Positions 2 through 35,991 of a stretch of DNA of 64,000 bases are shown here, piece after piece. The stretch covers positions 26,746 to 90,745 of the forward strand of contig JBOEGD010000016.1 of assembly GCA_050633245.1 (NCBI GenBank), read 5' to 3'. The notes under the pieces were generated by a model. That model was not told the origin of the DNA and made no database searches. It worked only from the letters and a program-made list of their open reading frames with translations. Within the stretch, counting starts at the first letter, position 1, and each line of letters begins with the position of its first letter. The position numbers were made by a program, and so were the translations under genes. This DNA is from Calditrichia bacterium (GTDB lineage: Bacteria; Calditrichota; Calditrichia; RBG-13-44-9; J075).

Positions 2-577
2 GGCTTTTTTATTCTAAATAATTATCAAAACACCTATTTGCCCGACCCGGCAATTCGCAAAAGCCGTGGCGGCCTTATCGATGGTCTTGTTCATTTTGGT
101 TCCATAGAAACTGCTGTAAAAAAACTATGCTGGATAGATCTTACCTGTTACGAACCGTTTACAATTGGAATGATCGCAGGTGGTGAAGCCGTTACCGTTT
201 ATAGCTGGGACGGATTTATTCTGAGCAGGAAAGAAAAGATAAAAGCTCCGATCTCATCGTCTTCTGCAAAGAACTGGCCCGATATTGCCAAGTGGCGCCG
301 CCAGCGTTTTGCTCAAATCGTTACAGACGCTGCCAATACCAAACAGTTTATTCACTTTCATAGCGACTATTATTCTGTCGATGCGGCAGCTTCAGTTTGC
401 ATGCGCCGTAAAAATGCAGTGACGGTAAGTCTTAGTCATATCTCAGCGACTCAAAAAGCCGTCACATTTAATTATAAAAACGGTGCGCCGGATGCAGTTG
501 ATTGGCAGACTCCTGTTGTTTTGTTGCGGGAGGCAAGACAAATCGCTGCTCCCCGACTAACCAATCTCGCCGAGTAA
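2..577 (+). CDS. NRDE/TANGO2-family protein, 5' end truncated by the window edge
   Basis: The frame is open from position 2 (GFFILNNYQN...KSRGGLI). It has 'PFTI', 'SSSS', 'HFH' and 'SVCMRR...TVS' motifs typical of NRDE Ntn-hydrolase-like proteins. Confidence 0.7.
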   Translation, partial: GFFILNNYQNTYLPDPAIRKSRGGLIDGLVHFGSIETAVKKLCWIDLTCYEPFTIGMIAGGEAVTVYSWDGFILSRKEKIKAPISSSSAKNWPDIAKWRRQRFAQIVTDAANTKQFIHFHSDYYSVDAAASVCMRRKNAVTVSLSHISATQKAVTFNYKNGAPDAVDWQTPVVLLREARQIAAPRLTNLAE

Positions 578-591
578 CTCAGGATTTACAT

Positions 592-3147
592 TTGACTCGC
601 TTTAAAATTCTTCTCCTCATTTACGCTTTTCTGTTAACGACATCCTTTATTTATCAGTGGATTTATCCATTTGATACCACGCCAACTAATCATCAAACAA
701 GTGTCCCCATCGCAGGCTCGGGTGAGCCGGTGATTGTGAATACTCTGGATCTGAAGGCATCTGATACCACAGATGCTCCTGTAATTTTGCTGCTACACGG
801 TAGCCCGGTTGCGGTTGAAATGTTTGACGATCTGCTTCCTGAACTAAGGCGATACTGTAGAGTTATCGCGCCCGATCTTCCCGGCTATGGAACGTCGAGT
901 AGAGAGATTTCCGATTACTCCGTTGCAGCGCATGCTGTATACATGCAGCAATTGTTGGATTCGCTACAGATACAAACTCTTCACGTTGTTGGTTACAGTC
1001 AGGGAGGTGGTGTAGCCATTTATCTTTCAGAAATGCTTGGCGAGCGTATTAAATCGCTGACCCTGCTTTCGGCAATCGGCGTTGTTGAGCTTGAATTACT
1101 TGGGGATTATCACCTCAATCATGCTATTCATGGAGCACAGCTGGCAGGTTTCTGGTTACTCCACTATGGCTTTCCCCATTTCGGATTTATGAAGCGTTTT
1201 CCACTAAACATTTACTATGCGCGAAATTTCTATGACACGGACCAACGTCCGCTGCGCGCTTTATTGAAAAAGCTGGAAATCCCGTTACTTATCCAACATG
1301 GAAATAAGGATGCGCTTGTCCCCTACCCGGCTGCGCTTGAACATCATCGCATTGTGCCGCAAAGCGAGTTGATCACCTATAAAGGTGGGCACGGAATACT
1401 GTCAGGCAAAGGCCCGCAAATGGCGCAGGATTTAAGTGAATTTATTTATCGGGTGGAATCGGGCACAGCCCTTTCCAGAAGTCAGGCAGATTTGCACAGA
1501 GTACAAAAGGCAGACGTACCATTTGTTGGCATCGAAAGTGGTCCCGCTGAAGGGCTCGTTCTATTTGTATTGATTCTGGTAATTGCCTTTGGAACTTTAA
1601 TTAGTGAAGACTTGGCCTGTATTGCTGCCGGCATTCTGGCTGCTCGCGGAATGCTGAGCTTTCCAAGCGCAGTATTTGCATCGTTTATCGGTATTTTTAT
1701 TGGTGATATTCTGTTATTTCTTGCTGGAAAGTGGCTTGGAAGACCAGCGCTAAAAAAAGCACCGCTTAAATGGATTATCAAAAGCGAAAGCGTTGAAAAG
1801 AGCACGCGTTGGTTCCAGGCGAGTGGGCCACAAATTATATTGGCCAGTCGCTTTTTGCCCGGTACCCGCCTGGCTACCTATTTTGGCGCAGGCATGCTGG
1901 GAGCATCCATGCGCACGTTTGTATTGTATTTTGGTCTCGCAGCCCTCATCTGGACGCCGCTGCTGGTTGGTATGGCAATGTTGTTGGGAAATCCATTGAT
2001 CGAGATATTCACTGCCTACAGCGCTCACATTCTTTGGTTGCTGCTTGGCGGTCTCATTCTGCTACATCTGCTGACGCGCACGTTACCCAAGCTCTTCACA
2101 TGGAAAGGCCGCCGCTTAGTTTATTCTTCGTGGAAGCGATTTACCAACTGGGAGTTCTGGCCGCCATACTTTTTTTATCCACCGCTGATTGTCTATCTGA
2201 TCTATCTGGGAATTCGTCATCGCTCGTTTACACTCTTCACTGCTGTGAACCCGGCAATGCCGGCTAGCGGATTCGTCGGTGAATCGAAGAGCGACATTCT
2301 TGCCGGTCTTTCCGAGAACAATGATTGCATTGCTGATTTCAAACTAATTGAGGACGGACTCAAGCGTGCAGAGAAGCTAAGAGCCATTACTGAATTTCAA
2401 TCTGGTTTATCACCAATATGGCCGGTGGTTTTAAAACCCGATACCGGTGAGCGTGGAAGCGGCGTGACCATCGCTAAAAATATGCTTGAGCTGGAAAGGT
2501 TTATCGATCAGACAAAAGTCAATTTTATCGTGCAAAAATATGTTTCGGGAGTAGAGTTTGGTGTGTTTTACTATCGCTATCCCAATGAAAAATCCGGCCA
2601 AATTTTTTCAATAACCGACAAACAGTTTATTACCGTTCGTGGCAACGGAAAAAATACGCTGGAAGAACTTATTCTACTGGATGAGCGAGCCGTTTGTATG
2701 GCGGCGTTTCATCTGGACAAGCATGCGCAGCTTTTGTATGAGGTTCCTTCTGCCGGAGAAGAGATTCCCCTTGTAGAGCTCGGAACTCATAGTAAGGGCG
2801 CGCTATTTCTGGACGGCAGTCGCATTAATACGCCGGCCTTATTAAAAAAGATTGATGAGAATAGTCAGGGCTACGAGGGCTTCTACTTTGGGCGGTATGA
2901 TATACGTGCTGAAACGGAAGAGGACTTTCGCAACGGCATCAATCTGAAGATTATCGAACTAAACGGTGTTACCTCGGAAGCAACGCACATTTATGATCCA
3001 AAAAACAGCGTTTTTGATGCCTATCGAATACTGGCCGAGCAATGGCGTATAGCCTTTGAAATCGGCCGGCAAAACAAAGAACGCGGCGAAAAGCCGGTGG
3101 GTCTGATATCGCTGCTAAAGCTGATAATCACGTCGAGGACTACATAA
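592..3147 (+). CDS. Fusion of alpha/beta hydrolase, DedA (VTT/SNARE-associated) membrane domain and ATP-grasp ligase-like domain
   Basis: Hydrolase motifs: LLHG, APDLPGYG, GYSQG nucleophile elbow, GGH. DedA motifs: 'ISEDLACI..G', 'GDILLF..GK', 'SRFLPGTR'. ATP-grasp motifs: 'VLKPDTGERGSGV', 'GRYDIRA', 'IIELNG'. Start placed at TTG 592 after AGGA (the ORF track starts at 502). Confidence 0.8.
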   Translation: MTRFKILLLIYAFLLTTSFIYQWIYPFDTTPTNHQTSVPIAGSGEPVIVNTLDLKASDTTDAPVILLLHGSPVAVEMFDDLLPELRRYCRVIAPDLPGYGTSSREISDYSVAAHAVYMQQLLDSLQIQTLHVVGYSQGGGVAIYLSEMLGERIKSLTLLSAIGVVELELLGDYHLNHAIHGAQLAGFWLLHYGFPHFGFMKRFPLNIYYARNFYDTDQRPLRALLKKLEIPLLIQHGNKDALVPYPAALEHHRIVPQSELITYKGGHGILSGKGPQMAQDLSEFIYRVESGTALSRSQADLHRVQKADVPFVGIESGPAEGLVLFVLILVIAFGTLISEDLACIAAGILAARGMLSFPSAVFASFIGIFIGDILLFLAGKWLGRPALKKAPLKWIIKSESVEKSTRWFQASGPQIILASRFLPGTRLATYFGAGMLGASMRTFVLYFGLAALIWTPLLVGMAMLLGNPLIEIFTAYSAHILWLLLGGLILLHLLTRTLPKLFTWKGRRLVYSSWKRFTNWEFWPPYFFYPPLIVYLIYLGIRHRSFTLFTAVNPAMPASGFVGESKSDILAGLSENNDCIADFKLIEDGLKRAEKLRAITEFQSGLSPIWPVVLKPDTGERGSGVTIAKNMLELERFIDQTKVNFIVQKYVSGVEFGVFYYRYPNEKSGQIFSITDKQFITVRGNGKNTLEELILLDERAVCMAAFHLDKHAQLLYEVPSAGEEIPLVELGTHSKGALFLDGSRINTPALLKKIDENSQGYEGFYFGRYDIRAETEEDFRNGINLKIIELNGVTSEATHIYDPKNSVFDAYRILAEQWRIAFEIGRQNKERGEKPVGLISLLKLIITSRTT

Positions 3148-4903: not shown

Positions 4904-7211
4904 AGAGTTTCTCAAGGAACTCGCTGCCGCATCGGCAATGTCTGCAGCAGCGATGTTTTTCCCGGGAATTGTCTTCGCGGAAATGCAAAACAAAAATTTC
5001 CCCGGAGAAGATATTGCATGGAAAAAAGCTCCCTGCCGCTTCTGTGGTGTTGGTTGTGGCTTGTTAATAGGTGTATCGGATGGACGCGCTGTTGCTGTAA
5101 AGGGAGATCCGGCAAGTCCGGTAAATAAAGGGCTGTGTTGTGTGAAAGGCTACCACTCGGTTCTTGCACTATACGGTAAGGATCGTTTAAAAACCGCATT
5201 GATTCGCAAAAACGGCAAACTTGTTCCGGCACCTATTAAAGAGGCTCTTGATTTAGTAGCCAGCAAGATGCAAAGCACGATTAAGGAACACGGGAAAGAT
5301 TCTGTGTCGATCTATGGCTCCGGACAGTGGACGATTCCGGATGGCTATGTTGCCTCAAAATTTATGAAAGGGGCAATTGGAACCAACAATCTTGAGGCCA
5401 ATGCCCGGCTCTGCATGGCTAGTGCAGTTACCGGTTTTATAACCAGCTTTGGAATGGATGAACCGATGGGTTGCTACGAAGACATCGACCATGCTGATGT
5501 CTTTGTTCTGTGGGGCAATAATATGGCAGAGATGCACCCGGTGCTTTTTTCGCGGCTGCTGGATCGGCGCATTAAAAATAGTAATGTAAAAATAATAGAT
5601 TTGGCAACTCGTACAACTCGTACCAGCATCGCTTCCGACAAATCTATTTTGTTCATGCCGCAAACAGATTTAGCAATAGCAAATGCAATCTGCTATGAGT
5701 TACTAACAACCGGTAAGATTAACAGAGATTTTTTAAAGAAGCACTGTGAATTTAAAACCGGTAAAACAAACATTGGATTTGGGCTCGAAGAGAAGTTCGC
5801 GTTTAAGGATGAAGCCTCGGCCAGCTCGATGGAAGAGTTCGCAAGTCTTCTTAGCGATTATTCTCCGGAAAAGGTAGAAAGCACATCCGGTGTTTCTGCA
5901 GCCGATATTCGCTACCTTGCATCTCTATATGGTGATCCGAATAAAAAAATTATGAGCCTGTGGTGCATGGGCGCCAACCAGCATACGCGCGGAACCTGGA
6001 TAAATAACCTAATTTATAACATCCATCTTCTAACCGGCAAAATCTCTACTCCCGGTAACAGTCCATTCTCTCTAACCGGACAACCAAGCGCCTGCGGTAC
6101 GGTAAGGGAAGTCGGCACGCTGACTCATAAATTGCCATATGGCGTGGTCATGAAAGAGGCAGCTCGTAAAAAGGCAGCAGATATCTGGCAGGTGCCGGTA
6201 GAAAATATCCCGGCCAAACCAACACATCATACAGTGTCTATGTTCCGGGCACTGGATCGTGGAGATATTCGTTTCATGTGGATTCAAGTGACCAATCCGA
6301 TGGTGACAATGCCGAAACTAAATCGCTATCGGGACGGGACTCTTAAGAAAGGTCGCTTTATTGTTGTTTCAGACGTATATCCCACACCAACCACAGATAT
6401 TGCAGATGTGGTACTACCGTCCGCGATGTGGATTGAACGGGAAGGTATGTACGGAAATTCGGAGCGCCGCACCCAACATTTTGATCAGCTTATTTCCCCT
6501 CCCGGAGAAGCAATGAGCGATACATGGCAGATTATAGAAGTTGCTCGCAGAATGGGTTATCAAAAGCTCTTCCCCTGGAGCGAGCAAGAACATATTGAAA
6601 AAATCTGGGAGGAATACAGTCGGTTTCACGCCGGTGCAAAACACGGGCTGGCACCTTATAAAGTATTGAAAGAACTTCCCGGTGCACAGTGGCCATATGT
6701 CAACGGGAAAAGCACCAAATGGCGTTTTAATGTCGAGCTTGATCCGGCAGCCAAGGGGCAAGGATTCGATTTTTATGGTAAGTCAAATGGCAAAGCCTGG
6801 ATTTGGTTTCGCCCTTACGAAGCACCACCTGAAGTTCCCGACAACGAGTATCCCTTTTGGTTAAACACCGGTAGGGTTCTGGAACATTGGCACACCGGCT
6901 CCATGACCAGACGTGTAGCGATCCTACACCGTGCAGTCCCGAAAGCCTATGTGGAGTTAAACCCTGATGACGCTCGACATCTGGGAATTCGCAACGGTGA
7001 TCCTGTAAAACTGATCTCCCGTCGCGGACAAATAGTTCTACCCGCCTCAATTAATCAACGTGGAAAGCCGGTAGCGGGTCAGGTGTTTGTACCTTTTTTC
7101 GATGAAGCGAAACTGATTAATGAATTGACGCTGGATGCTTATTGCCCAATCTCTAAACAACCGGACTATAAAAAATGCGCGGTAAAAGTGGAAAAAGTAA
7201 CCGGGGTTTAA
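4890..7211 (+). CDS. napA: Periplasmic nitrate reductase catalytic subunit (Mo-bisPGD)
   Basis: Tat signal NRREFLK; 4Fe-4S motif CRFCGVGC...C; NARLCMASA Mo-ligand Cys; GQPSACGT; TGRVLEHWHTGSMT; C-terminal DYKKCAVKV. Confidence 0.93.
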   Translation: MMNRREFLKELAAASAMSAAAMFFPGIVFAEMQNKNFPGEDIAWKKAPCRFCGVGCGLLIGVSDGRAVAVKGDPASPVNKGLCCVKGYHSVLALYGKDRLKTALIRKNGKLVPAPIKEALDLVASKMQSTIKEHGKDSVSIYGSGQWTIPDGYVASKFMKGAIGTNNLEANARLCMASAVTGFITSFGMDEPMGCYEDIDHADVFVLWGNNMAEMHPVLFSRLLDRRIKNSNVKIIDLATRTTRTSIASDKSILFMPQTDLAIANAICYELLTTGKINRDFLKKHCEFKTGKTNIGFGLEEKFAFKDEASASSMEEFASLLSDYSPEKVESTSGVSAADIRYLASLYGDPNKKIMSLWCMGANQHTRGTWINNLIYNIHLLTGKISTPGNSPFSLTGQPSACGTVREVGTLTHKLPYGVVMKEAARKKAADIWQVPVENIPAKPTHHTVSMFRALDRGDIRFMWIQVTNPMVTMPKLNRYRDGTLKKGRFIVVSDVYPTPTTDIADVVLPSAMWIEREGMYGNSERRTQHFDQLISPPGEAMSDTWQIIEVARRMGYQKLFPWSEQEHIEKIWEEYSRFHAGAKHGLAPYKVLKELPGAQWPYVNGKSTKWRFNVELDPAAKGQGFDFYGKSNGKAWIWFRPYEAPPEVPDNEYPFWLNTGRVLEHWHTGSMTRRVAILHRAVPKAYVELNPDDARHLGIRNGDPVKLISRRGQIVLPASINQRGKPVAGQVFVPFFDEAKLINELTLDAYCPISKQPDYKKCAVKVEKVTGV

Positions 7212-7894
7212 CGGACGACTTAAACTCAAAATACCGATTCATATTTATTGGCCTATGTATACTCCTGATGGCATCATCCGTTTTGATTATTGGTAAGAGC
7301 CTACGTGAAAACGCACGAGAACCGGATATCTCTTTGCAATCGAAGGGTGATCGCTCGGCAATTGCAATTGAGGCAGACGTGTTTCGAAGTGCCGGTAAAA
7401 TGTCGGAGAACTTTTTTTCTCAGGCTGCGAAAGGCTCCTCTCGAAAACTGGTTGATTTTTATTCTCTTAGGGCGTATCCGGGTGCTCCTCCCTCTATTCC
7501 ACATCCGGTAGCGAAGAACAATACCATTGGACACAACGTTTGCCTGCAATGCCACGAAAACGGAGGATATGTACCCAAATTTGAAGCATTTGCACCTGTG
7601 ACACCCCACCCGGAATTTGTTAACTGTTTACAATGTCATTCCGTTAACACGACCAACAGCACGTTTGTAAATTCTGATTGGAGAGTTCCCGCTCCGCCCC
7701 GAATAAATCAGGAGGCACTCTCCGGAAGTCCTCCACCCATTCCACACGCGCTCCATCTAAGAGGTAATTGCCTCGCGTGTCATTCGGGTCCGGGCGCCGT
7801 TGAGGAACTAAGATTTACCCATGCAGAGCGTACCAATTGTCTACAATGCCATGCCTTGAGTTCTGGCATATCGCCCTGGCAACGTGAACAATAA
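7175..7894 (+). CDS. Membrane-anchored NapB-like multiheme cytochrome c (4 CxxCH)
   Basis: N-terminal TM helix; two 'PP.IPH' NapB-like motifs; CLQCH, CLQCH, CLACH, CLQCH. Confidence 0.8.
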   Translation: MRGKSGKSNRGLTDDLNSKYRFIFIGLCILLMASSVLIIGKSLRENAREPDISLQSKGDRSAIAIEADVFRSAGKMSENFFSQAAKGSSRKLVDFYSLRAYPGAPPSIPHPVAKNNTIGHNVCLQCHENGGYVPKFEAFAPVTPHPEFVNCLQCHSVNTTNSTFVNSDWRVPAPPRINQEALSGSPPPIPHALHLRGNCLACHSGPGAVEELRFTHAERTNCLQCHALSSGISPWQREQ

Positions 7895-7952
7895 TTCTAC
7901 AGTGACAAACATTTATGTGTCATTTAGCAACCATTCGAAAGTAGAGAAACGA

Positions 7953-8597
7953 ATGAAAATTTTGCCTAAAATTCCATCGGTGAATTACTTATTTCTTACC
8001 ATTGGTTTCGGTTTTCTCCTAATGGCCTGCAGTTCTGACCATGAAGATAAGACACATCACCAGAGCTTCGCCGAACAGTTATCGGAGAAACATGATCGGA
8101 CCTTAAAGGTGGACATAAATCGTGTAACAGATTTCGATCTTGAAAATTTTATTCCGGTAGACGTTTTATCAACCAACCCCAAATTCTACGTCTCCCCACA
8201 GCTTGCTACAATTTCATCATTTCCCTGCAATGAATGTCATGATCGTCCTTTGAGACAGCTTACTAAGCTTGTCGATCCGGAGATTCAAAAGGCCCATTGG
8301 CAGATTCAGCTAAAGCACGCTTCTACAGATGCGATGGACTGTCAAACTTGTCACAACTCGGAGGACATGAATACATTGGTTAGCTTAACCGGCAAGAAGA
8401 TATCCCTTAACCACAGTTATCAACAGTGCGCTCAGTGTCATTCCGGTCAAGCGACAGACTGGATTGGTGGTGCACATGGCAAACGTGTTGAAGGATGGAT
8501 TCCTCCTCGAATTATCAAAAACTGTGTCCAGTGTCATGATCCACACCAACCGGGTTGGGAAAAAAGATGGCCGACTCAAACACAACAAGTGAGATAA
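7953..8597 (+). CDS. Tetraheme cytochrome c lipoprotein
   Basis: Lipobox LMAC; CNECH, CQTCH, CAQCH, CVQCH. Start moved to ATG 7953. Confidence 0.8.
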   Translation: MKILPKIPSVNYLFLTIGFGFLLMACSSDHEDKTHHQSFAEQLSEKHDRTLKVDINRVTDFDLENFIPVDVLSTNPKFYVSPQLATISSFPCNECHDRPLRQLTKLVDPEIQKAHWQIQLKHASTDAMDCQTCHNSEDMNTLVSLTGKKISLNHSYQQCAQCHSGQATDWIGGAHGKRVEGWIPPRIIKNCVQCHDPHQPGWEKRWPTQTQQVR

Positions 8598-8604
8598 CGA
8601 TACA

Positions 8605-9825
8605 ATGAAAACTCTTCCACAGCAAAACCAGTGTTCTCAAGGATGTTGCTCTAATAAGACAGACGCCAATTCTCCCCCCCAAAGTTTCGCAAGTGGCATC
8701 GCGAATAAGACACTTGCCGGGCTTAAAAAGAACACTCAGGAACTGCTTGCCGAAAGCCAGTTGAAACTAACGCCGACGCCCCGATTTGAATCCTCCGTAA
8801 ATTCAGCGTCTGGTTTAAATGACGTTTTGCTATGGCATCTGATGAAGGATGATGTTTCAAACTCAAAAGCTCAGGCAAAATCAAAGCACATTCAAATGGA
8901 GCAAGCCATTCAACGCCCAATGTCACGTCGTTCAGCAGTGAAAGGTCTGGCCGCAGGCTTAATGGCCGGTCTCGGACTTGTGCAAAGTAGCTGTAGTCCG
9001 TTTGAGGGAGATTCCGGCAAAGCGAGCAAACTAAAATGGAATGAATACTTCAAAGGGAATTTCCGCTTAATGACCGCGACGGAAAAACGGGAAACAATAG
9101 ACCGCCTTCAGCAACTGTATGCACTAAACACCGGGGAACACATTCAGATTAGCGCCGCAAGTGCGCCGAAGAATGTGCTATTTGGCTATGCGTTTAATAT
9201 TGGTAAGTGCCAGGGTTACATGGATTGTATAAAGGCATGTATCAATGAGAATAATCAGGATCGCAAATCCGATATGCGCTACATTCGTATTCATGAGCAC
9301 AAAAAAGGGCATTTTAACTTTGAACATGCCAAAGACGATTTTTTTCATGAGGTTCCCCTGGAAGGGCACTTCTATATAGGAACTCAATGTTTTCACTGTG
9401 AGAATCCGCCATGTGTTGATGTCTGCCCTGTCCAGGCTACCTGGAAGGAGGAAGACGGGATTGTGGTTGTCGATTACGACTGGTGCATCGGCTGTCGATA
9501 TTGTCAAGCTGCCTGCCCTTATGATGCTCGTCGGTTCAATTGGAATGATCCCACTGTTCCGGAAGAGGAAGTGAATCGCAAGCAACATTACCTCGGGAAC
9601 AGGCTCCGGAAGAAAGGCGTCATGGAAAAGTGCACTTTCTGCATTCAGCGCACGCGCGCAGGCAAAAACCCGGCCTGTGTTGAAGCATGCCCAACCGGAG
9701 CGCGTGTGTTTGGCAACTTACTAGATCCCGACAGCGAAATCCGATGGATTATTGAGAACAAAAAAGTGTTTCGTTTAAAAGAGGAATTAGGGACTGAGCC
9801 TAAATTTTGGTATTACATGGACTAA
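8605..9825 (+). CDS. NrfC/DsrO-like 4Fe-4S ferredoxin subunit
   Basis: CFHCENPPCVDVCP, CIGCRYCQAACP, KCTFC...PACVEACP; internal Tat-like SRRSAVK. Confidence 0.85.
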   Translation: MKTLPQQNQCSQGCCSNKTDANSPPQSFASGIANKTLAGLKKNTQELLAESQLKLTPTPRFESSVNSASGLNDVLLWHLMKDDVSNSKAQAKSKHIQMEQAIQRPMSRRSAVKGLAAGLMAGLGLVQSSCSPFEGDSGKASKLKWNEYFKGNFRLMTATEKRETIDRLQQLYALNTGEHIQISAASAPKNVLFGYAFNIGKCQGYMDCIKACINENNQDRKSDMRYIRIHEHKKGHFNFEHAKDDFFHEVPLEGHFYIGTQCFHCENPPCVDVCPVQATWKEEDGIVVVDYDWCIGCRYCQAACPYDARRFNWNDPTVPEEEVNRKQHYLGNRLRKKGVMEKCTFCIQRTRAGKNPACVEACPTGARVFGNLLDPDSEIRWIIENKKVFRLKEELGTEPKFWYYMD

Positions 9826-28210: not shown

Positions 28211-29305
28211 CTACAATTCCTCGTCATTTTTTTGCCCCAGAAACACAGGTGTATCCGCACCGTCAAGATTACGCATATCAAGCGCATTGCAACCGATTTC
28301 ATATGCTATTTTATAAGACTTTCCGGCACCCAGAGTATCATAAAACGCAACCGAAAATTCTATCGCTGCCTGCTGCTCAATTTTGTTGCTCATACCAATA
28401 ACGCAGGGAATGTGTGCGCTAATTGCCCTGGCCTGTGGTTCAGAATAACAAGCATTGAGTATGACGCACTCAATATTCTCGCTCAGTATACCCAACAAAT
28501 TTGCCAATGCAGCCTCACCTATCGGCTTTCCGAGTCCATTTTCATCCTCTAGTAGAACGGCGCTCTTATTCTCAGAACGCATACCGTGTCCGCTAAAATG
28601 CACGATATTCGGCTCCTCATCTAAAATAGCACGGCGTAAGTCTGTAGTGCGAACCGCCATTCGCGTTACCAGCTCAAACTCATCGCGACGATTTGCACGG
28701 CGAAGGCCCTCCTCTATCTCGCGGATTTCCTCGGCGATGCGCAGCGGATCCTGATCAATCGGCTGGGCAGCCAGCACCAGAATTTTACGCTTTTTCTTAT
28801 TTGCGGTATGATTCTTATTGGATCGTTTATCGATGGTCACTTGCGCAGCATCACCGGTAATATTGATTTGATCACCTTCTACCTGCGTTGTGCTTTGATC
28901 GACAGTATAGTCACCCGTTACCTTCCCTGGCGAGTTTTGACCATGCGTTGTAATGGTATCACCATAACTGACGTTCTGTACATTGCCATCGCCCTGCTGG
29001 TTGGGGCTATTGGTAAACTGGTTACCGCTTTGGGAATAGTGCTTTTTAGGTTGAATCTCTTTCATTAGCTGTTGCAGCACCGTATTGCTCTCTACATAGG
29101 CTTCAAAATACTTGGCGCTTTTGCGATCTGTCTCACTGGCCTTCATTGCCTCTTCGACAATAGCCGTTAGCTGCTCCTCGCTGATCAGAAACTTCTGTAG
29201 TCGTTCGCGCAGGAATTGTTTGGTTACACTTCCGGCGGCCTTTACAGCGTCATAACAAATTCCGCCTAGCACAGCGGAGGTGAGAAATGCGTTTACTCCG
29301 TCCAT
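28211..29305 (-). CDS. Putative effector: N-terminal helical domain, Q/N/G/T-rich linker and CHAT (caspase/HetF-like) protease
   Basis: 'KILVLAAQP...LRI.EE.REI', catalytic His in IVHFSGHG (aa 240), Cys in VILNACYS (aa 286), 'VIGM', 'FY..L..G'. Confidence 0.9.
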   Translation of the reverse strand: MDGVNAFLTSAVLGGICYDAVKAAGSVTKQFLRERLQKFLISEEQLTAIVEEAMKASETDRKSAKYFEAYVESNTVLQQLMKEIQPKKHYSQSGNQFTNSPNQQGDGNVQNVSYGDTITTHGQNSPGKVTGDYTVDQSTTQVEGDQINITGDAAQVTIDKRSNKNHTANKKKRKILVLAAQPIDQDPLRIAEEIREIEEGLRRANRRDEFELVTRMAVRTTDLRRAILDEEPNIVHFSGHGMRSENKSAVLLEDENGLGKPIGEAALANLLGILSENIECVILNACYSEPQARAISAHIPCVIGMSNKIEQQAAIEFSVAFYDTLGAGKSYKIAYEIGCNALDMRNLDGADTPVFLGQKNDEEL

Positions 29306-29331
29306 TGATATTCCTTTTTATTGGGATACAC

Positions 29332-31509
29332 CTACATTTTCTTGCTAATTCGATCTATAAAATCCTGAATTTTCTGATGATAAGGATGCTCTTCCGGCAA
29401 GGCGGCATGGTAAATTTCTGCTGCCCGAGAGCAGTAATTCAGGGCAGCTTCGAAATGCCTCATATCCTCTAAGATAGACCCCATTACCCAGCAGGACAGT
29501 GCTAAATCAGGATGATTCGCATGCAAAACCGGCTCACGAATTTTTAATGCCTTCTGTTGCGCATCCAACGCATCTTCTAAACGACCCAAAGAACGATAAA
29601 CCGTCGACAGATTGCTGTAAGATGTGGCTAAGTCAGGATGCCTCTCATCCAAAATAGCTCCAAAAATCTCATGCGCCTTTAGCTGCACTTCCAACCCATC
29701 TTCTAAACGATCCAAAGACTGATAAATAGACGAAAGGTTGTTGTAGGACTGTGCTAAAGAAGGATGAGTCGCATCTAAAACGGACTCACGGATGTTCACT
29801 GCCTTCTGTTGCGCTTCCAACCCATCTTCTAAACGACCCAAAGAAAGATAAACCGTCGACAGATTGTTGTAGGAGGTAGCTAAAGAAGGGTGAGTTGCAT
29901 CTAAAACGGACATTTTAATCTTTAATGCCTTCTGCTGTGACTCCAGCGCATCCTCAAAACGCCCCAAAGAATTATAAATCAACGACAGATTGTTGTAGGA
30001 CTGTGCTATGTCTGGATGATCCACACCCAAAACGGACTCACGACAATTCAAAGCCTTCTGCTGCGACTCTAGCGCATCCTCAAAACGCCCCAAAGAATTA
30101 TAAATCAACGACAGATTGTTGTAGGAGTTGGCCAGTGAAAGATCATCAGCCTCTAGCAGCTTTTCTTCAATGTCTATTCCGCGCAGCTGCACCTCAAGAG
30201 AGTCAGTTATTCGTCCAAAATGGTAATAAATCCAAGCCAGGCGTTCCATAAATCTCGCCAACGAGGTATTAGCGTCCGTCAAATAAGACACCATATCCTC
30301 TGCATAAGGAACAAGACTTGCCTTTGCAAGCGGATTGTCTCCAGGCTGGACGGTTAGTAAGTTTGTCAGCGATTCGATCAGCTTGCTACACCCCCCCGCA
30401 GTGGGTTTCAACCGCTCCCGTGCCACCGCAGCAATAATTGGGTGCAAAAAGACTTCAAAACCTTCCTGCTCAGACAGCCAGCCTTTGGCGACTAGTGAAG
30501 TAAGGGTATCGCTAATGTCATCCTGTAGCCAGTCGCTGAGCATTTGTGCTTCCATTGGCTCAGAAGGCAATACGCATAGGTTAGCAAGTACGTGGGCTTC
30601 TTCTGCAGATAGACCTTCCATGTTAAAAACGTTATTCAGGTGCTCAAAAAGCTTCTTCTCATCAATTTGATCATGCCAGAGGGTCTTAACCTTTTTCGGC
30701 AGAGCTTCATTTAGGTTAAAGCCGATCTCCTTCAGACGTTCCAGCAGTACGGTAATACTTATTTTGGCATGGTTGGCCGTCTTGGCAAGCAGCTCGACAG
30801 TCAACGTATGCTGCCCGGCAAGGTCGATTATCTCCTCCAGCGTTTCCACATCGCGCTTGCCCTTATAGAAGCGATAGAAAATCTCTCTGCAGCTTTCCAC
30901 ATCCAGAAATCCCAGTGGATAGCTCTCAAAACCTGCCAGCTGCAGCCGCGAGCTGGTTACCACCTTTAGCGGCAGGCCGCGCAGGTTGGCCAGATCAGCG
31001 TCTTCTGCATCAAGAATGTCATCGACAACCAGCAAAGACTTTACGGGCAGATTTGCAATCAAATGCATAATAAGCGCAAACTGTTCGTCGAGCGTTTGGC
31101 CCTGCTGAGGCGTAAATACCTCTGCGCTAATCGCCCGAACCAAAGACTCACGAAAGCTGCCAAAATAGTCTACCCACAGCAAATGATCAAAATTCGTCTT
31201 CTGTTCATGGAAAAAATGACGGCACAGCTCAGTCTTGCCTATGCCACCCAGGCCATTCACTACCACCACTGCTCCGGCATCATTCAGCGAGGTTTCCAGC
31301 TGGCGCAAATCTTCTTTCCGACCAACAAAACCCGCATTCTGCGGAGGTGTTCCGGTGAGGAATTTCGGTAATAGTTTATCACCGGAAATATACTGGTTTA
31401 TGATGTTTCCATAGTGAACGCGCTGAGTTCCACCATCGCCCTGCATATTGGGGCTTTGGATAAAGGCATTGTCAGCCTGCTCTTGCTCTTTTGGTTTCTT
31501 CTTTGGCAT
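29332..31509 (-). CDS. NB-ARC (STAND) ATPase + TPR, NLR-like receptor (here NLR-C)
   Basis: FVGRKEDL, Walker A GLGGIGKT, Walker B LLVVDD, 42-aa TPRs of the HPxxAxSYNNLS type. Confidence 0.92.
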   Translation of the reverse strand: MPKKKPKEQEQADNAFIQSPNMQGDGGTQRVHYGNIINQYISGDKLLPKFLTGTPPQNAGFVGRKEDLRQLETSLNDAGAVVVVNGLGGIGKTELCRHFFHEQKTNFDHLLWVDYFGSFRESLVRAISAEVFTPQQGQTLDEQFALIMHLIANLPVKSLLVVDDILDAEDADLANLRGLPLKVVTSSRLQLAGFESYPLGFLDVESCREIFYRFYKGKRDVETLEEIIDLAGQHTLTVELLAKTANHAKISITVLLERLKEIGFNLNEALPKKVKTLWHDQIDEKKLFEHLNNVFNMEGLSAEEAHVLANLCVLPSEPMEAQMLSDWLQDDISDTLTSLVAKGWLSEQEGFEVFLHPIIAAVARERLKPTAGGCSKLIESLTNLLTVQPGDNPLAKASLVPYAEDMVSYLTDANTSLARFMERLAWIYYHFGRITDSLEVQLRGIDIEEKLLEADDLSLANSYNNLSLIYNSLGRFEDALESQQKALNCRESVLGVDHPDIAQSYNNLSLIYNSLGRFEDALESQQKALKIKMSVLDATHPSLATSYNNLSTVYLSLGRLEDGLEAQQKAVNIRESVLDATHPSLAQSYNNLSSIYQSLDRLEDGLEVQLKAHEIFGAILDERHPDLATSYSNLSTVYRSLGRLEDALDAQQKALKIREPVLHANHPDLALSCWVMGSILEDMRHFEAALNYCSRAAEIYHAALPEEHPYHQKIQDFIDRISKKM
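29927..30126. repeat. Near-identical TPR-coding direct repeat with 126-bp period in NLR-C
   Basis: SYNNLSLIYNSLGRFEDALESQQKAL is encoded twice, 126 nt apart, with only a couple of synonymous differences. Confidence 0.85.
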
Positions 31510-31524
31510 CGTATAAACCTATTT

Positions 31525-33594
31525 TTATTCTTTCGTCTCGTCCAGTTTCTCCCTGTAGGATTGTAAATTATGAAATGCGATATCAAGATGAGGATGCCCA
31601 CCCGTAAAATTTTTTTGCCAAATCTGCAAGGCCCTTTCTTCAAACACCACTGCAAAATTATAGCTTTCCATGACCGCGTAAATACTCGCAAGGTTGTGAT
31701 AAGACTGCGCTAAGTCCGGGTGATCACCAGACAAAGTTGAGCCACGTATTTCAACCGATTTCTGCTGCATTTCCAAAGCCTCAGCGAAACAATATAACCC
31801 CTTATAAATAAGCGACAGGTTATTGTAGGACGTCGCTAGATTAGGATGATCCACACCCATAACCGAGATATAAATTTTATGTGCTTTCTTCTGCGTAGCC
31901 AACGCCTCGTCCAAACGTCCCATTGATTCAAAAATAAGTGACAAATTGTTGTAAGAGGTTGCTAAATTAGGGTGATCAGAGGGCAACGCCGACTCGAATA
32001 TGTCAATTGCTTTCTGCTGGGAAGCCAGTGCATTATCTAAACGACTCAAAGAACGATAAATTAGCGACAAATTATTGTAGGAGCTTCCTAAGTCAAGGTG
32101 ATCGGGTGGTAATAGTAACTCACTAATTTTAAGATCTTTCAGCTGCGACGCAAGCGCATCATCCAAACGCCCTAAAGAAAGATAAATTTGCGACAGGTCG
32201 TTATAGGAATCAGCCAATAAGGCATCGGTGCTATGAAGGAGCTGCTCTCGAATAGCAACGGAGCGTAGCTGCACCCTGAGGGATTCATTTAACTTTCCAA
32301 TTCCACGATATACCCAGCCCAAATAATACCCCAATGTCGCCAAGATTAGATGATCTTCGTTAAGATGGTTAAACAGTTCCTGACTGTAGGGAAGAAAAAT
32401 TGATTTACTAATTGGATTATCCCCCGGCTTCATTTCAAGTTTACTGATAAGCGAGTTGACCAAGATATTACAAGACATTGCCTTTGGCTTCAGCCGTTCC
32501 CGAGCCACGGCAGCAATAATTGGGTGCAAAAACACTTCAAAACCTTCCTGCTCAGACAGCCAGCCTTTGGCGACTAGTGAAGTGAGGGTATCGCTAATGT
32601 CATCCTGTAGCCAGTCGCTTAGTATTGCGGCTTCCATAGGCTCAGACGGCAATACACATAGATTAGCCAGCACGTAGGCTTCCTCTTCTGACAGGCTGTC
32701 CATTGCAAAAACGTTGTTTAAATGCTCAAAAAGCTTCTTTTCATCGACCTGCTCATGCCAGAGCATCTTCACGTTCTTTGGCAAGGCCTCATTCAGATTA
32801 AAGCCGATATCTATCAGGCGTTCAAACAGAACGGCAATGCTGATTTTTGCATGGTTGGCCGTCTTGGCAAGCAGCTCGACGGTCAGAGTATGCTGCCCGG
32901 TAAGATCGATCACGGCATCCAGCGTTTCCTCATCGCGCTTGCCGTTGTAAAAGCGATAGAAAACTTCCCGGCAGCTTTCAACGTCCAGAAATCCCAACGG
33001 ATAGCTTTCAAAACCTTCCAGCTGTAGACGTGAGCTGGTAACCACCTTTAGCGGCAGGCCGCGCAGTGCGGCCAGATCAGCGTCTTCTGCATCAAGAATG
33101 TCATCAACCAGCAGTAATGACTTTTCCGGCAAGTCGGCAAGAATAAGCATCACCTGCTCAAACTGTTCATTTAATGTTTGCCCCTCTCGCGGTCTGAATA
33201 CGTCTGTTCTAATAGCACGTACTAATGATTCCCGAAAGTTGCCGAGATAATCTACCCAGAGCAGGTGCTCAAACTTCGCCTGCTGTTCATGAAAAAAATG
33301 CCGGCACAGCTCGGTTTTGCCAATTCCACCCAGGCCATTCACCACCACCACTGCTCCGGCATCATTCAGCGAGGTTTCCAGCTGACGCAGATCTTCCTCC
33401 CGACCAAAGAAACCTGCATTCTGCGGTGGCGTGCCGGTGAGGAATTTGGGCAGCGGTTTTTCACCGGAAATATATTGATTTATGATATTTCCATAGTGAA
33501 CGTGCTGCGTATTGCCATCGCCCTGCTGATTCGGGCTTTGGCTAAAGGCATTAGCGCTCTGCTCTTGCTTTTTTGGCTTCTTTTTTGACGACAT
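31525..33594 (-). CDS. NB-ARC (STAND) ATPase + TPR, NLR-like receptor (here NLR-B)
   Basis: FFGREEDL, GLGGIGKT, LLLVDD, 42-aa TPRs; paralogue of both neighbours. Confidence 0.92.
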   Translation of the reverse strand: MSSKKKPKKQEQSANAFSQSPNQQGDGNTQHVHYGNIINQYISGEKPLPKFLTGTPPQNAGFFGREEDLRQLETSLNDAGAVVVVNGLGGIGKTELCRHFFHEQQAKFEHLLWVDYLGNFRESLVRAIRTDVFRPREGQTLNEQFEQVMLILADLPEKSLLLVDDILDAEDADLAALRGLPLKVVTSSRLQLEGFESYPLGFLDVESCREVFYRFYNGKRDEETLDAVIDLTGQHTLTVELLAKTANHAKISIAVLFERLIDIGFNLNEALPKNVKMLWHEQVDEKKLFEHLNNVFAMDSLSEEEAYVLANLCVLPSEPMEAAILSDWLQDDISDTLTSLVAKGWLSEQEGFEVFLHPIIAAVARERLKPKAMSCNILVNSLISKLEMKPGDNPISKSIFLPYSQELFNHLNEDHLILATLGYYLGWVYRGIGKLNESLRVQLRSVAIREQLLHSTDALLADSYNDLSQIYLSLGRLDDALASQLKDLKISELLLPPDHLDLGSSYNNLSLIYRSLSRLDNALASQQKAIDIFESALPSDHPNLATSYNNLSLIFESMGRLDEALATQKKAHKIYISVMGVDHPNLATSYNNLSLIYKGLYCFAEALEMQQKSVEIRGSTLSGDHPDLAQSYHNLASIYAVMESYNFAVVFEERALQIWQKNFTGGHPHLDIAFHNLQSYREKLDETKE

Positions 33595-33615: not shown

Positions 33616-35559
33616 CTATTTCGTCTCATCCAGTTTCTCTTGATAGGATTGCAAAGCACTGGATGAACTGTCAACGTGAGGGTGCCCATCAGGAAAGTTC
33701 ACCTCAAGTATTTGCAGGGCCTTCGCTTCGAGTTCTAGTGCCTTCTGGTAATTTTTCTGCACTGCATAAATGCCGGCTAGGTTGTGATAGGAAATCGCTA
33801 AATGAGGATGAGCCGTATCCAAAACAATTTCAGCAATTTTGTGCGCTTTCTCTTGCGTAGCCGACGCCTCGTCCAAACGCCCCAAAGAACGATAAATCAG
33901 TGACAGATTGTTGTAGGACCCCGCTACATGGGGATGAGTCGAATCCAAAGCCGACTTAAGTATTTTGTGCGCTTTCTCTTGCGCAGCCAATGCCTCATCC
34001 AAACGACTCAAAGAACGATAAATCAGTGACAGATTGTTGTAGGACGTCGCTAATAAAGGATGATTTGCTTCCAACACTGACTCGCTGATTTCAATATCCT
34101 TCTGCTGCGCAGCCAATGCCTCATCCAAACGCCCCAAAGACTGAAAGGTTAGTGCCAAATTGGAATAGGATGAAGCCAGAGAATTATCATTATTTTCTAA
34201 CAGCCGCTCTTCGATCTCAAGCCCACGGTGTTGAACTTTTAGAGAGTCTTCTAACCTTCCAAGATCGCGGTAAACCCAAGCCAGGTGAAACATCAATTTT
34301 GCCACCAGCGTACTATCTTCATTCAATTGATCGACCAGTTTTTGCGCAAAGGGCACATAGCCGGCACGACGAAGTGGATTATCTTCCGGCTCAACAGTCA
34401 GCTTTATTGTAAGCGATTCGATCAGCTTCCTACAGGTGTCGGGAGTGGGCTCTAACAGTTCGCGAGCCACTGCGGCAATAATCGGGTGCAAAAACACTTC
34501 AAAACCTTCCTGCTCAGACAGCCAGCCTTTAGCTGTGAGGGCAGTCAGCGTATCGCTGAGATCCTTTTTCAGCCAGTCGCTTAAGGTCTGGGCTTCCAAT
34601 GGTTCAGACGGCAGCACACAGAAATTAGACAAAACCTCGACCTCGTCGTCAGTAAGGTCCTCCATTGCAAAGACGTTTCTTAAGTGCTCAAAGAGCTTCT
34701 TTTCATCAATCTCGTCATGCCAGAGCGTCTTTACGTTCTTCGGTAGAGCCTCATTCAGGTTAAAGCCGATCTCCTTCAAGCGTTCAACCAGATCCGCAAT
34801 GCTGATTTTGGCATGATTGGCTGTCTTGGCCAAAAGCTCGACGGTAAGCGTATGCTGCCCGGCAAGGTCGATAATCTCCTCCAGCGTTTGCTCATCGCGC
34901 CTGCCCTTGTAAAAGCGATAGAAAATCTCTTTGCAGCTTTCCATATCCAGAAATCCCAGCGGATAGCTTTCAAAGCCTTCCAGCTGTAAGCGCGAGCTGC
35001 TAACCACCTTTAGCGGCAGGCTGCGCAAGGCCGCTAAATCGGGATCATTAACATCATCAATATCATCAACAACCAGCAGGGTCTTCCTCGGCAAATTGGT
35101 AGCCAGCCCCATAACCAGCGCAAACTGCTCATCCAGAGTCTGCCCTTCGGTTGGCATAAATACTTCGGATCGCATTACCCGCACCAAAGACTCGCGGAAG
35201 CTACCGAGATAATCCACCCACAGCAGGTGCGTAAACTGCTCTTTCTGCCGGTGAAAAAACTGCCGGCACAGCTCGGTTTTGCCAATCCCGCCCAGACCGT
35301 TCACCACAACCACCGCCCCGGCACTGTTCAGCGTATTTTCCAACTGCGCGAGGTCTTCCTCCCGGCCAAAAAAGCCGGCATTTTGCGGTGGCGTACCGGT
35401 AAGAAATTTGGGCAGCGGCTTTTGCTGCGGAAGATTGTTAATCGTGCGCTTATCAATATTTACGGATGCCTGTTCACCGCTAATATTTAGCTGGTCATTG
35501 GCAATTTTAGTTTTTGAGTGGCTGACAGAAGTCTGTTGAGGCTTTTTCTTTTTTGCCAA
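33616..35559 (-). CDS. NB-ARC (STAND) ATPase + TPR, NLR-like receptor (here NLR-A)
   Basis: TTG start with GGGAG RBS; FFGREEDL, GLGGIGKT, LLVVDD, 42-aa TPRs. Confidence 0.92.
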   Translation of the reverse strand: MAKKKKPQQTSVSHSKTKIANDQLNISGEQASVNIDKRTINNLPQQKPLPKFLTGTPPQNAGFFGREEDLAQLENTLNSAGAVVVVNGLGGIGKTELCRQFFHRQKEQFTHLLWVDYLGSFRESLVRVMRSEVFMPTEGQTLDEQFALVMGLATNLPRKTLLVVDDIDDVNDPDLAALRSLPLKVVSSSRLQLEGFESYPLGFLDMESCKEIFYRFYKGRRDEQTLEEIIDLAGQHTLTVELLAKTANHAKISIADLVERLKEIGFNLNEALPKNVKTLWHDEIDEKKLFEHLRNVFAMEDLTDDEVEVLSNFCVLPSEPLEAQTLSDWLKKDLSDTLTALTAKGWLSEQEGFEVFLHPIIAAVARELLEPTPDTCRKLIESLTIKLTVEPEDNPLRRAGYVPFAQKLVDQLNEDSTLVAKLMFHLAWVYRDLGRLEDSLKVQHRGLEIEERLLENNDNSLASSYSNLALTFQSLGRLDEALAAQQKDIEISESVLEANHPLLATSYNNLSLIYRSLSRLDEALAAQEKAHKILKSALDSTHPHVAGSYNNLSLIYRSLGRLDEASATQEKAHKIAEIVLDTAHPHLAISYHNLAGIYAVQKNYQKALELEAKALQILEVNFPDGHPHVDSSSSALQSYQEKLDETK

Positions 35560-35926: not shown

Positions 35927-35960
35927 AAAAAAGGAGGCTCCGCAAATTGCAGAGCCTCCT
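35927..35960 (-). terminator. Intrinsic terminator of the fad operon
   Basis: AGGAGGCTC..GCAA/TTGC..GAGCCTCCT stem with an A-tract on the left (U-tail on the minus strand). Confidence 0.8.
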
Positions 35961-35991
35961 CGAGTAAAGATCTAATCATGATTTTAGAAGA

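Follow-up and report, generated by a model that had tools for sequence, protein, structure and literature searches.

Shared N/Q/G-rich motifs link NLR paralogs to a BabyBell-CHAT effector in a Calditrichia operon with candidate amyloid signalling

How might several NLR sensors encoded side by side address one and the same effector? The question is raised by a locus of a Calditrichia bacterium (GenBank assembly GCA_050633245.1), which we analyzed within a stretch of 64,000 nucleotides of contig JBOEGD010000016.1 (positions 26,746 to 90,745), referred to here as the window. The locus is a minus-strand operon of three paralogs with NB-ARC and tetratricopeptide repeat (TPR) domains, NLR-A, NLR-B and NLR-C, and one effector (Table 1); judged from its sequence, it is best read as a four-gene cell-suicide immune operon. 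The original prediction, made from the DNA alone, had noticed one motif of 25 residues, hereafter motif A, in the effector linker and at the N-termini of NLR-B and NLR-C. We found that this motif is real but that it is one of three tandem motifs, lying in an effector with two death domains. With a probability of about 0.7, motif A is an amyloid signalling motif of the BASS type (bacterial amyloid signalling sequence), rich in N, Q and G and disordered in the resting proteins. Its amyloid state is suggested by sequence, structural modelling and analogy with known systems.

Motifs shared by the effector linker and the NLR N-termini

Re-translation of the window reproduced the open reading frames (ORFs) and coordinates on which the prediction was built, and a recount from the translations returned the same identities between the copies of motif A. 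Effector residues 92-116 are identical to NLR-B residues 12-36 at 17 of 25 positions, with an exact nine-residue match (SPNQQGDGN), and to NLR-C residues 11-35 at 14 of 25; the two NLR copies share 19 of 25 residues with each other. Motif A includes the stretch G-N-V-Q-N-V-S-Y-G in the effector, to which G-N-T-Q-H-V-H-Y-G corresponds in NLR-B. Its composition is strongly biased, since Q is enriched 4.9-fold, N 3.2-fold and G 2.0-fold, while K, L and E are absent. The proteins had been described as otherwise unrelated, and indeed the matches of the effector within the NLR genes cover only its residues 67-121, 82-121 and 133-185. The four genes are collinear on the same strand, separated by gaps of 21, 15 and 26 nucleotides, and all fit within 7.4 kb.

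Composition-shuffled controls, which the prediction had named as one test able to refute it, fail to reproduce the similarity. The Smith-Waterman alignment of the effector linker (residues 85-180) with the first 60 residues of NLR-B scores 106; the shuffles averaged 28.9 and went no higher than 57, and none of 5,000 reached the observed value. The corresponding alignment with NLR-C scores 85 (shuffle maximum 52, 0 out of 5,000). When 25-residue segments were shuffled and compared without gaps, they never exceeded 12 identities, so that 17 or 14 were not reached in any of 200,000 trials. A six-frame tblastn search of the whole 6.3-Mb genome found motif A below E = 0.1 only in these three genes, the next match having E = 0.12. 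Of the 17 positions at which the effector and NLR-B agree, 11 have the same codon and six have synonymous ones, and the nucleotide identity over the motif is 54 out of 75. Motif A is therefore not a fresh DNA copy.

The effector linker, a segment of about 85 residues that is predicted to be disordered, carries on the evidence of its sequence three unlike motifs in tandem, in the order A, C, B along the protein. Motif B pairs the effector with NLR-A: the alignment scores 83 (shuffle maximum 58, 0 out of 5,000 reaching 83), 15 out of 32 residues are identical between effector residues 134-165 and the NLR-A N-terminus, and six-frame tblastn of the whole genome returned only these two copies. The same search found no second copy of motif C in this genome. 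Motif C does occur in two genomes of the same family. In one of them (G005) it sits after a BabyBell domain; in the other (G003) a homologous effector has it ahead of the CHAT domain, and the two NLR homologues on either side of this effector carry it at their N-termini. The effector and NLR copies of G003 align with scores of 131 and 151 (shuffle maxima 53 and 55, not reached in 2,000 trials), and the motif C of the window aligns with the G003 copies with scores of 72 and 49 (shuffle maxima 46 and 42). Relatives of the NLRs and of the CHAT effector thus use the same shared-tag logic with another tag. From this arrangement, the effector of the window looks as if a BabyBell-motif A unit had been joined head to tail with a motif-CHAT unit, and its motif C may be a socket left without a partner, or else a spacer.

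The motifs are flanked by runs of lysine. In the effector, KK (residues 87-88) precedes motif A and KKKRK (residues 166-171) follows motif B; KKKPK stands ahead of the motif at residues 3-9 of the NLR N-termini, and the small BabyBell proteins described below end with KKK after the motif. Such runs may act as charged gatekeepers.

The three sensors are NB-ARC/AAA_16 STAND NTPases with TPR_10/TPR_12 arrays according to Pfam, and all three retain intact Walker A and Walker B motifs (in NLR-A, GLGGIGKT from residue 88 and LVVDDI at residue 162). Their nucleotide-binding oligomerization domain (NOD) modules are about 80% identical, with 24 to 38 identities out of 40 in each block of 40 alignment columns, and their TPR regions are more diverged. 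Each NLR carries an N-terminal tag of about 40 residues, placed ahead of a conserved KPLPKFLTGTPPQNAGF junction. In the first 40 columns of the alignment, NLR-A and NLR-B are identical at only 9 of 39 positions, compared with 24 to 35 out of 40 per NOD block, whereas NLR-B and NLR-C are identical at 30 of 38. Since the first columns of NLR-A and NLR-B are unrelated and those of NLR-B and NLR-C are alike, the N-terminal tag is a separate, exchangeable module.

Table 1. Positions of the operon features in the window and of the candidate frameshift cassettes in other loci
Feature	Position	Strand	Description and evidence
Effector	28211-29305	minus	364 aa; BabyBell/HetE-N domain, three-motif linker, CHAT protease
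CHAT caspase-like protease domain	28226-28792	minus	Effector aa 172-360; PF12770, 8tl0
Motif B, effector linker	28814-28885	minus	aa 141-164; shuffles, genome search
Motif C, effector linker	28886-28957	minus	aa 117-140, TITTHGQNSPGKVTGDYTVDQSTT, around HGQNSPGKVTGDY
Motif A, effector linker	28958-29032	minus	aa 92-116; identities, shuffles, genome search, tail HMM, model
BabyBell/HetE-N helical domain	29042-29305	minus	Effector aa 1-88; PF20701, PDB 9h9v, AF2
NLR-C	29332-31509	minus	725 aa; NB-ARC + TPR
Motif A copy, NLR-C N-terminus	31405-31479	minus	aa 11-35; identities, shuffles, genome search, tail HMM
NLR-B	31525-33594	minus	689 aa; NB-ARC + TPR
Motif A copy, NLR-B N-terminus	33487-33561	minus	aa 12-36; identities, shuffles, genome search, model, tail HMM
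NLR-A	33616-35559	minus	647 aa, TTG start; NB-ARC/AAA_16 STAND NTPase + TPR_10/TPR_12 sensor
Motif B copy, NLR-A N-terminus	35437-35508	minus	aa 18-41, KIANDQLNISGEQASVNIDKRTIN
Terminator-like hairpin, strong	35931-35961	minus	14 pairs + T-run, just after the upstream acyl-CoA dehydrogenase gene
Candidate frameshift cassette, G003	L042:8626-8690		
Candidate frameshift cassette, G013	L041:9538-9602	minus	
Candidate frameshift cassette, G010	L011:1408-1472	minus	
aa, amino acids; HMM, hidden Markov model; AF2, AlphaFold2.

The effector domains, the BabyBell tails and known signalling systems

The domains on either side of the linker both have relatives of known structure. The N-terminal domain matches PF20701 with 55.9 bits (cut-off 25, E = 5.6e-15) and, over residues 7-88, the 'Babybass' structure PDB 9h9v (E = 6e-6 directly, E = 2e-24 with a family profile); by sequence it is homologous to the cell-death domain of Escherichia coli Bab, whose residues 1-90 were crystallized as 9h9v (Ibarlosa et al., bioRxiv 10.1101/2024.11.07.622273). 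Of the four Bab residues whose mutation is described there as abolishing killing (D2, G11, Y14 and D15), three are kept in the effector, as G15, Y18 and D19, and D2 is not. The C-terminal domain matches PF12770 with 46.5 bits (cut-off 24) and keeps HFSGHG (from residue 236) and NACYS (from residue 284), which align with the closest solved CHAT relative, the 'activated SAVED-CHAT filament' PDB 8tl0 (E = 1.4e-12 by sequence, E = 6e-14 by Foldseek). Foldseek with the CHAT domain also matches MALT1 and caspases. The AlphaFold2 (AF2) model of the effector has a mean predicted local distance difference test score (pLDDT) of 76, with four helices at residues 2-83 and the CHAT domain above 90; residues 84-152 are below 50 and have no secondary structure. 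Among the 120 best CHAT relatives listed, PF20701 and PF12770 were combined only in the query, and with these queries the BabyBell-CHAT fusion appears to be unique.

The sequence that follows the BabyBell domain recurs elsewhere. Searching 1.84 billion representative proteins with effector residues 1-175 returned 47 proteins at E <= 1e-3, of which only the query itself was below 1e-30 and most were BabyBell proteins of 106 to 168 residues. We took 31 of them for study and aligned 26 with the effector. Several of their tails align with motif A in the pattern N-x-F-x-N-S-P-phi-phi-x-G-x-G-N/T (for example P0127, P0131, P0125, P0128, P0130 and P0140), and a Pfam scan of ten matches found HetE-N in nine and CHAT in none. 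We then built a hidden Markov model (HMM) from 16 tails of the motif A type, none of them from the window, and searched the 72,442 six-frame ORFs of at least 40 residues in the genome of the window. The effector ranked first (E = 1.9e-4, residues 90-118), NLR-B second (E = 0.066, residues 12-34) and NLR-C third (E = 0.56, residues 14-33), ahead of an unrelated ORF (E = 2.3). Motif A is thus, by its sequence, a member of a recurrent class of tails on small BabyBell proteins. A contig of a metagenome-assembled Clostridiales genome (L018), whose shortness leaves no room to see a partner gene, carries two tandem BabyBell genes with near-identical tails of this type (score 182). The BabyBell query found no match among phage records.

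The arrangement closely follows the published definition of BASS, in which a motif of about 25 residues is common to an effector and to the N-terminus of an adjacent collinear NB-ARC or NACHT protein (Dyrka et al., bioRxiv 10.1101/2020.01.06.895854). We applied the working form of this definition given there (motif of about 20 to 25 residues, NB-ARC or NACHT gene within 5 kb) and found that the effector motif is repeated at the N-termini of nearby NB-ARC/TPR proteins, with the identities given above, and that the genes run collinearly with very little sequence between them. The composition of motif A agrees in part with the bias reported for BASS, an enrichment in Q, N, G, V and I and a depletion in K, P and L (10.1101/2020.01.06.895854), in that Q, N and G are raised and K and L are absent. 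CHAT is listed among the non-Bell effector domains of that survey. Its described effectors carry the motif at the C-terminus, and multiple motifs are pseudo-repeats of one family. Unlike the BASS1-10 Bell-domain/NLR pairs, as far as the available passages describe them, the effector of the window places three unlike motifs in tandem between two domains, addressed to different NLRs.

One close parallel is Bab/Agp, an antiphage system of E. coli ECOR25 that carries the BASS11 motif; the C-terminal BASS11 of Bab is reported to be amyloid in experiments, to spread as foci and to be required for the signal, and the motif also occurs with CHAT and NB-ARC domains (10.1101/2024.11.07.622273). As in Bab/Agp, an N/Q/G-rich motif comes directly after the homologous domain and recurs at the start of the sensor encoded beside it: motif A starts four residues past the BabyBell domain, where BASS11 starts in Bab. 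The two systems differ in motif sequence (F-x-N-S-P-x-x-Q-G-x-G-N in motif A, Q-x-H-x-G-S-G-D-N-V in BASS11), in their sensors (three NB-ARC/TPR proteins here, a single sensor of TPR-GreA/B-C-PIN type there) and in the effector, which here has 364 residues with two more motifs and a CHAT domain, and in Bab has 109 and ends with the motif.

BabyBell genes paired with a larger neighbour occur elsewhere too. Among 15 BabyBell loci collected from genome contigs, nine (L021-L025 and L027-L030) show the tail motif repeated at the N-terminus of the next large gene, which spans about 650 to 1,130 codons (some are cut by the contig end), with the repeat reading Q-x-H-x-G-S-G-D-N-V-x-G-N-K. Both plasmid loci, from Buttiauxella and Pantoea, have the same pairing. 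The tail of the Shewanella indica locus (L029) retains all eight BASS11 residues (T85, I87, G88, S89, V90, Q92, D99 and N100). The collected set probably corresponds to BASS11 by its sequence, the Bab residues being those named in the published text and the published alignment being a figure.

A comparison of motif A with BASS profiles had been proposed with the prediction. The BASS11-like HMM that we built from 27 tails and partner N-termini has no match in the operon and detects none of motifs A, B and C, its best match in the genome being an unrelated ORF (E = 0.14); we therefore rejected membership in BASS11. Since the BASS11 position is kept and the BASS11-like HMM is silent, motif A is a different sequence class. 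The likeness to RHIM fared no better: the central core G-phi-Q-phi-G of RHIM, PP and BASS3 is absent from motif A, and Pfam found neither RHIM nor PP at E <= 0.1 in the four proteins. Of the proposed beta-arch amyloid motif resembling RHIM and BASS, it is the BASS-like part, a beta-arch amyloid signalling motif common to NLR N-termini and an effector, that is the best-supported reading.

Three further systems resemble parts of the operon. Effector residues 7-111, which span the BabyBell domain and reach into motif A, match the model NF047935 (E = 5e-18) for GapS6a, which forms the antiphage system GAPS6 together with GapS6b (bioRxiv 10.1101/2023.03.28.534373). Membership in GAPS6 was rejected, since the 65.3 bits of this match are below the cut-off of 90 and the partners are NB-ARC/TPR proteins in which Pfam found no PIN domain, unlike GapS6b, which is described as a TPR-PIN protein (10.1101/2023.03.28.534373). 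A Lysinibacillus protein with a tail of the motif A type bears the UniRef name GapS6a family protein. In the fungal HET-S/NWD2 and HeLo/NLR pairs, the N-terminal motif of the NLR templates a matching one beside a membrane-targeting helical death domain, and the prion-forming domain is C-terminal, with two pseudo-repeats of one motif. The operon shares with HET-S/NWD2 the NLR N-terminal motif that is matched beside a helical death domain; it differs in having no sequence relation and in the internal position of its motifs. The SAVED-CHAT protease is activated through filament formation, and the active state deposited as 8tl0 is a filament, which gives a precedent for the activation of a CHAT domain by polymerization. 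There, however, polymerization is driven by the SAVED sensor domain, and Pfam found no SAVED domain here.

Stacking of motif A and the rival explanations

To see how the copies might pack, as the prediction had suggested, we modelled three copies of effector residues 86-122 together with three copies of NLR-B residues 1-45, using ESMFold2 without alignments. The six-chain model scored 0.63 (median of 0.65, 0.02 and 0.63), with 0.01 for the best of three controls, on a scale where the calibration mark is reached by 51 of 78 solved complexes and by two of 108 mismatched pairs, although multi-copy peptides fall outside this calibration. Agreement between the complex runs is 88% of contacts or more, with a partner pLDDT of at least 43. 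The contacts with the lowest error join effector residue n to NLR-B residue n-80 (108-28, 112-32, 106-26, 102-22 and 113-33), and this offset of 80 is also that of the sequence alignment. Contacts between homologous positions correspond to a parallel in-register stacking geometry. In the model, therefore, motif A of the effector and that of NLR-B are predicted to stack in register, which supports an amyloid-like co-fold without showing one.

Several observations weigh against the assignment of motif A to the BASS type. Its location is one of them: at residues 92-116 of 364, the motif does not lie at the C-terminal end of the effector, and is C-terminal only relative to the BabyBell domain, being followed by two motifs and the CHAT domain. 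The composition departs from the published bias in V (0.85-fold), I (0.20-fold) and P (0.96-fold, with one conserved proline). Of the families compared, BASS11 was rejected by profile, as reported above, and BASS1-10 were compared with motif A by their description. The scores of NLR-B and NLR-C with the tail HMM are not significant alone, although their ranks and positions are exact, and one of the three runs of the complex scored just 0.02. Finally, for the BabyBell proteins of the motif A type in Paenibacillus (L019) and Clostridium (L020), no protein encoded within 6 kb has an N-terminus that matches the tail. These two proteins carry an extra C-terminal domain, as does the effector of the window, and in a sample of the class Bacilli the gene was present in three of 401 genomes, always with such a domain. 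Tails of this class may therefore work on their own.

The search for a second locus points in the same direction. In the scans made, no further locus paired an NLR and an effector that both carry motif A, which leaves the motif without evidence from co-variation. Among 5.8 billion clusters, NLR-B residues 1-45 returned two candidates, of which only the query itself scored; an alignment of the window motifs gave 42 pattern matches in genome contigs, none confirmed by tblastn; and a first metagenome scan from the NLR N-termini gave 587 pattern matches and no relative. A second metagenome scan with a broader NLR alignment found 233 relatives. The 80 that we kept mostly have fused N-terminal domains (many of them TIR-like) or a hydrophobic N-terminal helix, and motif A is absent from their loci. 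Sixteen metagenome loci had a neighbour score of at least 45, and in seven of them none of 100 shuffles reached the observed score. Only L105 and L108 are short-motif pairs; L056, L062 and L063 have shared globular N-domains instead. In both L105 and L108, found on metagenome contigs, a short motif at the N-terminus of a distant NLR homologue is also present in a small ORF next to it. The L105 pair consists of GNHVSEYDIGKIKNDSEGDVHYGDINN and GDRMSEFCIGKIVNKNKGNVHIGDVNN (score 86, shuffle maximum 44), and its ending, HYGD-I-NN, resembles the end of motif A.

The alternative that survives best, although we consider it unlikely, is that motif A is a homotypic docking tag through which the effector binds the activated NLR oligomer in finite, stoichiometric fashion, by beta-strand addition or as a small co-folded beta unit, with no open-ended templating. 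The sharing of the motif, its specificity and its modular swapping fit such docking equally well, the model shows in-register packing of a six-chain bundle and not propagation, and a conserved proline together with low V and I would be unusual in an amyloid core. Against docking, the homologous position in Bab is described as holding a motif that is amyloid in experiments, propagates as foci and is essential for signalling; a composition rich in N, Q and G and free of K, L and E, combined with disorder of the monomer, is typical of the BASS class; and the stacking of identical positions predicted by the model is the geometry of amyloids.

Considerably less probable is a role of the motifs as recognition or cleavage sites of the CHAT domain, in which a self-cut in the linker would free the BabyBell domain, as in bacterial gasdermins, and cuts in the NLR N-termini would act as feedback. 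In its favour, the linker that bears the motif joins a pore-type domain to a caspase-like protease whose His/Cys pair is intact, and one sequence common to protease and substrates would explain the three copies. Tails of the motif A type occur, however, on many small BabyBell proteins without CHAT (none of the ten scanned has it), two unlike motifs that each match a different NLR are unexpected for a single protease specificity, and the in-register model needs no protease. That recombination or gene conversion among low-complexity segments left the similarity behind, with no signalling role, is very improbable: the segments are compositionally biased, and neither the pattern scan of genome contigs nor the search of 5.8 billion clusters found another locus with the same pairing, but shuffles that keep composition never approach the observed scores, the different codons at six of the 17 shared residues speak for selection acting on the peptide, one operon maintains two separate motif pairs, the copies are placed exactly at the extreme NLR N-termini and in the inter-domain linker, and an HMM from unrelated organisms ranks exactly these three sites at the top of all ORFs.

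If motif A is a BASS-type amyloid motif, we infer the following course of activation. A trigger would bind the TPR sensor, and the NB-ARC module would oligomerize. The clustered NLR tags would then co-fold into a nucleus of stacked, in-register beta structure, amyloid-like in nature, which would template the cognate tag in the effector linker and make the effector molecules polymerize. Motif A would act as the socket for NLR-B and NLR-C, and motif B as the socket for NLR-A. Polymerization could release or activate the membrane attack by the BabyBell domain, as in Bab and HET-S, and proximity along the polymer might, in addition or instead, activate the CHAT domains, as happens in SAVED-CHAT filaments; either domain may thus be the one that kills.

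We propose tentatively, at less than even odds, a wider interpretation in which the effector is a hub coded by its motifs. Tandem amyloid 'sockets', three in number and unlike each other, within the disordered linker would let several independently evolving NLRs fire one executioner without cross-talk, NLR-B and NLR-C through motif A and NLR-A through motif B, and the executioner would have two weapons, the BabyBell domain and CHAT domains aligned by the amyloid. Motif C would then be a spare socket for an NLR that was lost or is not yet acquired, or an insulator between A and B. If true, such a hub would be a case in nature where orthogonal amyloid templating serves as addressable wiring and where a protease is activated on an amyloid scaffold.

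Surroundings of the operon, related loci and significance

The terminator-like hairpin upstream of NLR-A marks the 5' boundary of the NLR transcription unit. In a test for an inserted island, the neighbouring acyl-CoA dehydrogenase was seen to have orthologues in all five relatives searched, and the other flank of the operon was matched in two of the five, on different contigs. In three relatives, the 9.5 kb beside the acyl-CoA dehydrogenase orthologue matched none of 11 window proteins. The nearest sequences of the thiolase gene that adjoins the operon are from Calditrichaeota, a tentative placement that relies on one protein. On the locus, PADLOC returned only the generic chat, SAVED_CHAT and TPR models, and no named system.

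Some NLR genes of related genomes have an unusual 5' organization. In one NLR of G003 and in G010 and G013, a 5' ORF that encodes a hydrophobic helix and motif C stops one codon past an A_AAA_AAG or A_AAA_AAA heptamer, and the body of the NLR, which lacks its own start codon, follows in the -1 frame. A few nucleotides 3' of the heptamer lies the start of a conserved hairpin of 13 pairs (-21 kcal/mol), one of which is U-G, C-G or U-A across the three genomes. From their sequence, these cassettes look like programmed -1 frameshifting that gives a short tag protein and a full-length NLR. In the window, in-frame A_AAA_AAG heptamers occur in the lysine-rich first codons of NLR-A (35548-35554) and NLR-B (33580-33586 and 33568-33574, minus strand), where a -1 slip would soon reach a stop, as read by eye from the printed DNA. 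The first codons of NLR-C contain no in-frame A_AAA_AAG heptamer. The heptamers of NLR-A and NLR-B may reflect lysine codons only.

Seven further CHAT-domain matches are present in the same genome, on contigs C8, C2, C9, C18 (three places, within 14 kb) and C22. In the copy on C8, the CHAT domain is followed by an N/G-rich stretch and a hydrophobic helix. On C22 (316-14152), outside the window, the CHAT gene (316-1404, minus strand) ends in an N/G-rich motif, GGNV-x-GS-V-L-ITGD, that recurs weakly in three ORFs of the contig (E = 0.002, 0.012 and 0.74), once at the N-terminus of a 906-residue ORF (6161-8881) and once inside an ORF of 1,134 residues. This contig may hold a second motif-coded circuit.

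Published work already describes amyloid signalling that links bacterial NLR-like sensors with Bell-type or CHAT effectors. What is new here is, by sequence comparison, a class of motif A tails distinct from BASS11, the placing of three unlike motifs one after another inside the effector, a Bab-type domain fused to a CHAT protease, and the probable wiring of three sensors to one effector through two motifs. The passages found in the literature describe no such hub, and supplements to these reports might list similar architectures.

Amyloid templating is established as an immune signal in fungi. It was recently demonstrated in one antiphage pair of E. coli, according to the passages found (10.1101/2024.11.07.622273). 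The operon offers a compact natural test of templating specificity, as two unlike motifs in one effector are each matched to a different sensor, and motif swaps would be clean experiments because the NOD modules of the sensors are so similar. The presence of a Bab-type domain and a CHAT domain around the motifs raises the idea that an amyloid scaffold may activate a caspase-like protease by proximity. The locus defines a second class of BabyBell tails besides BASS11, and it places such systems outside Actinobacteria and Cyanobacteria, which dominated the first survey.

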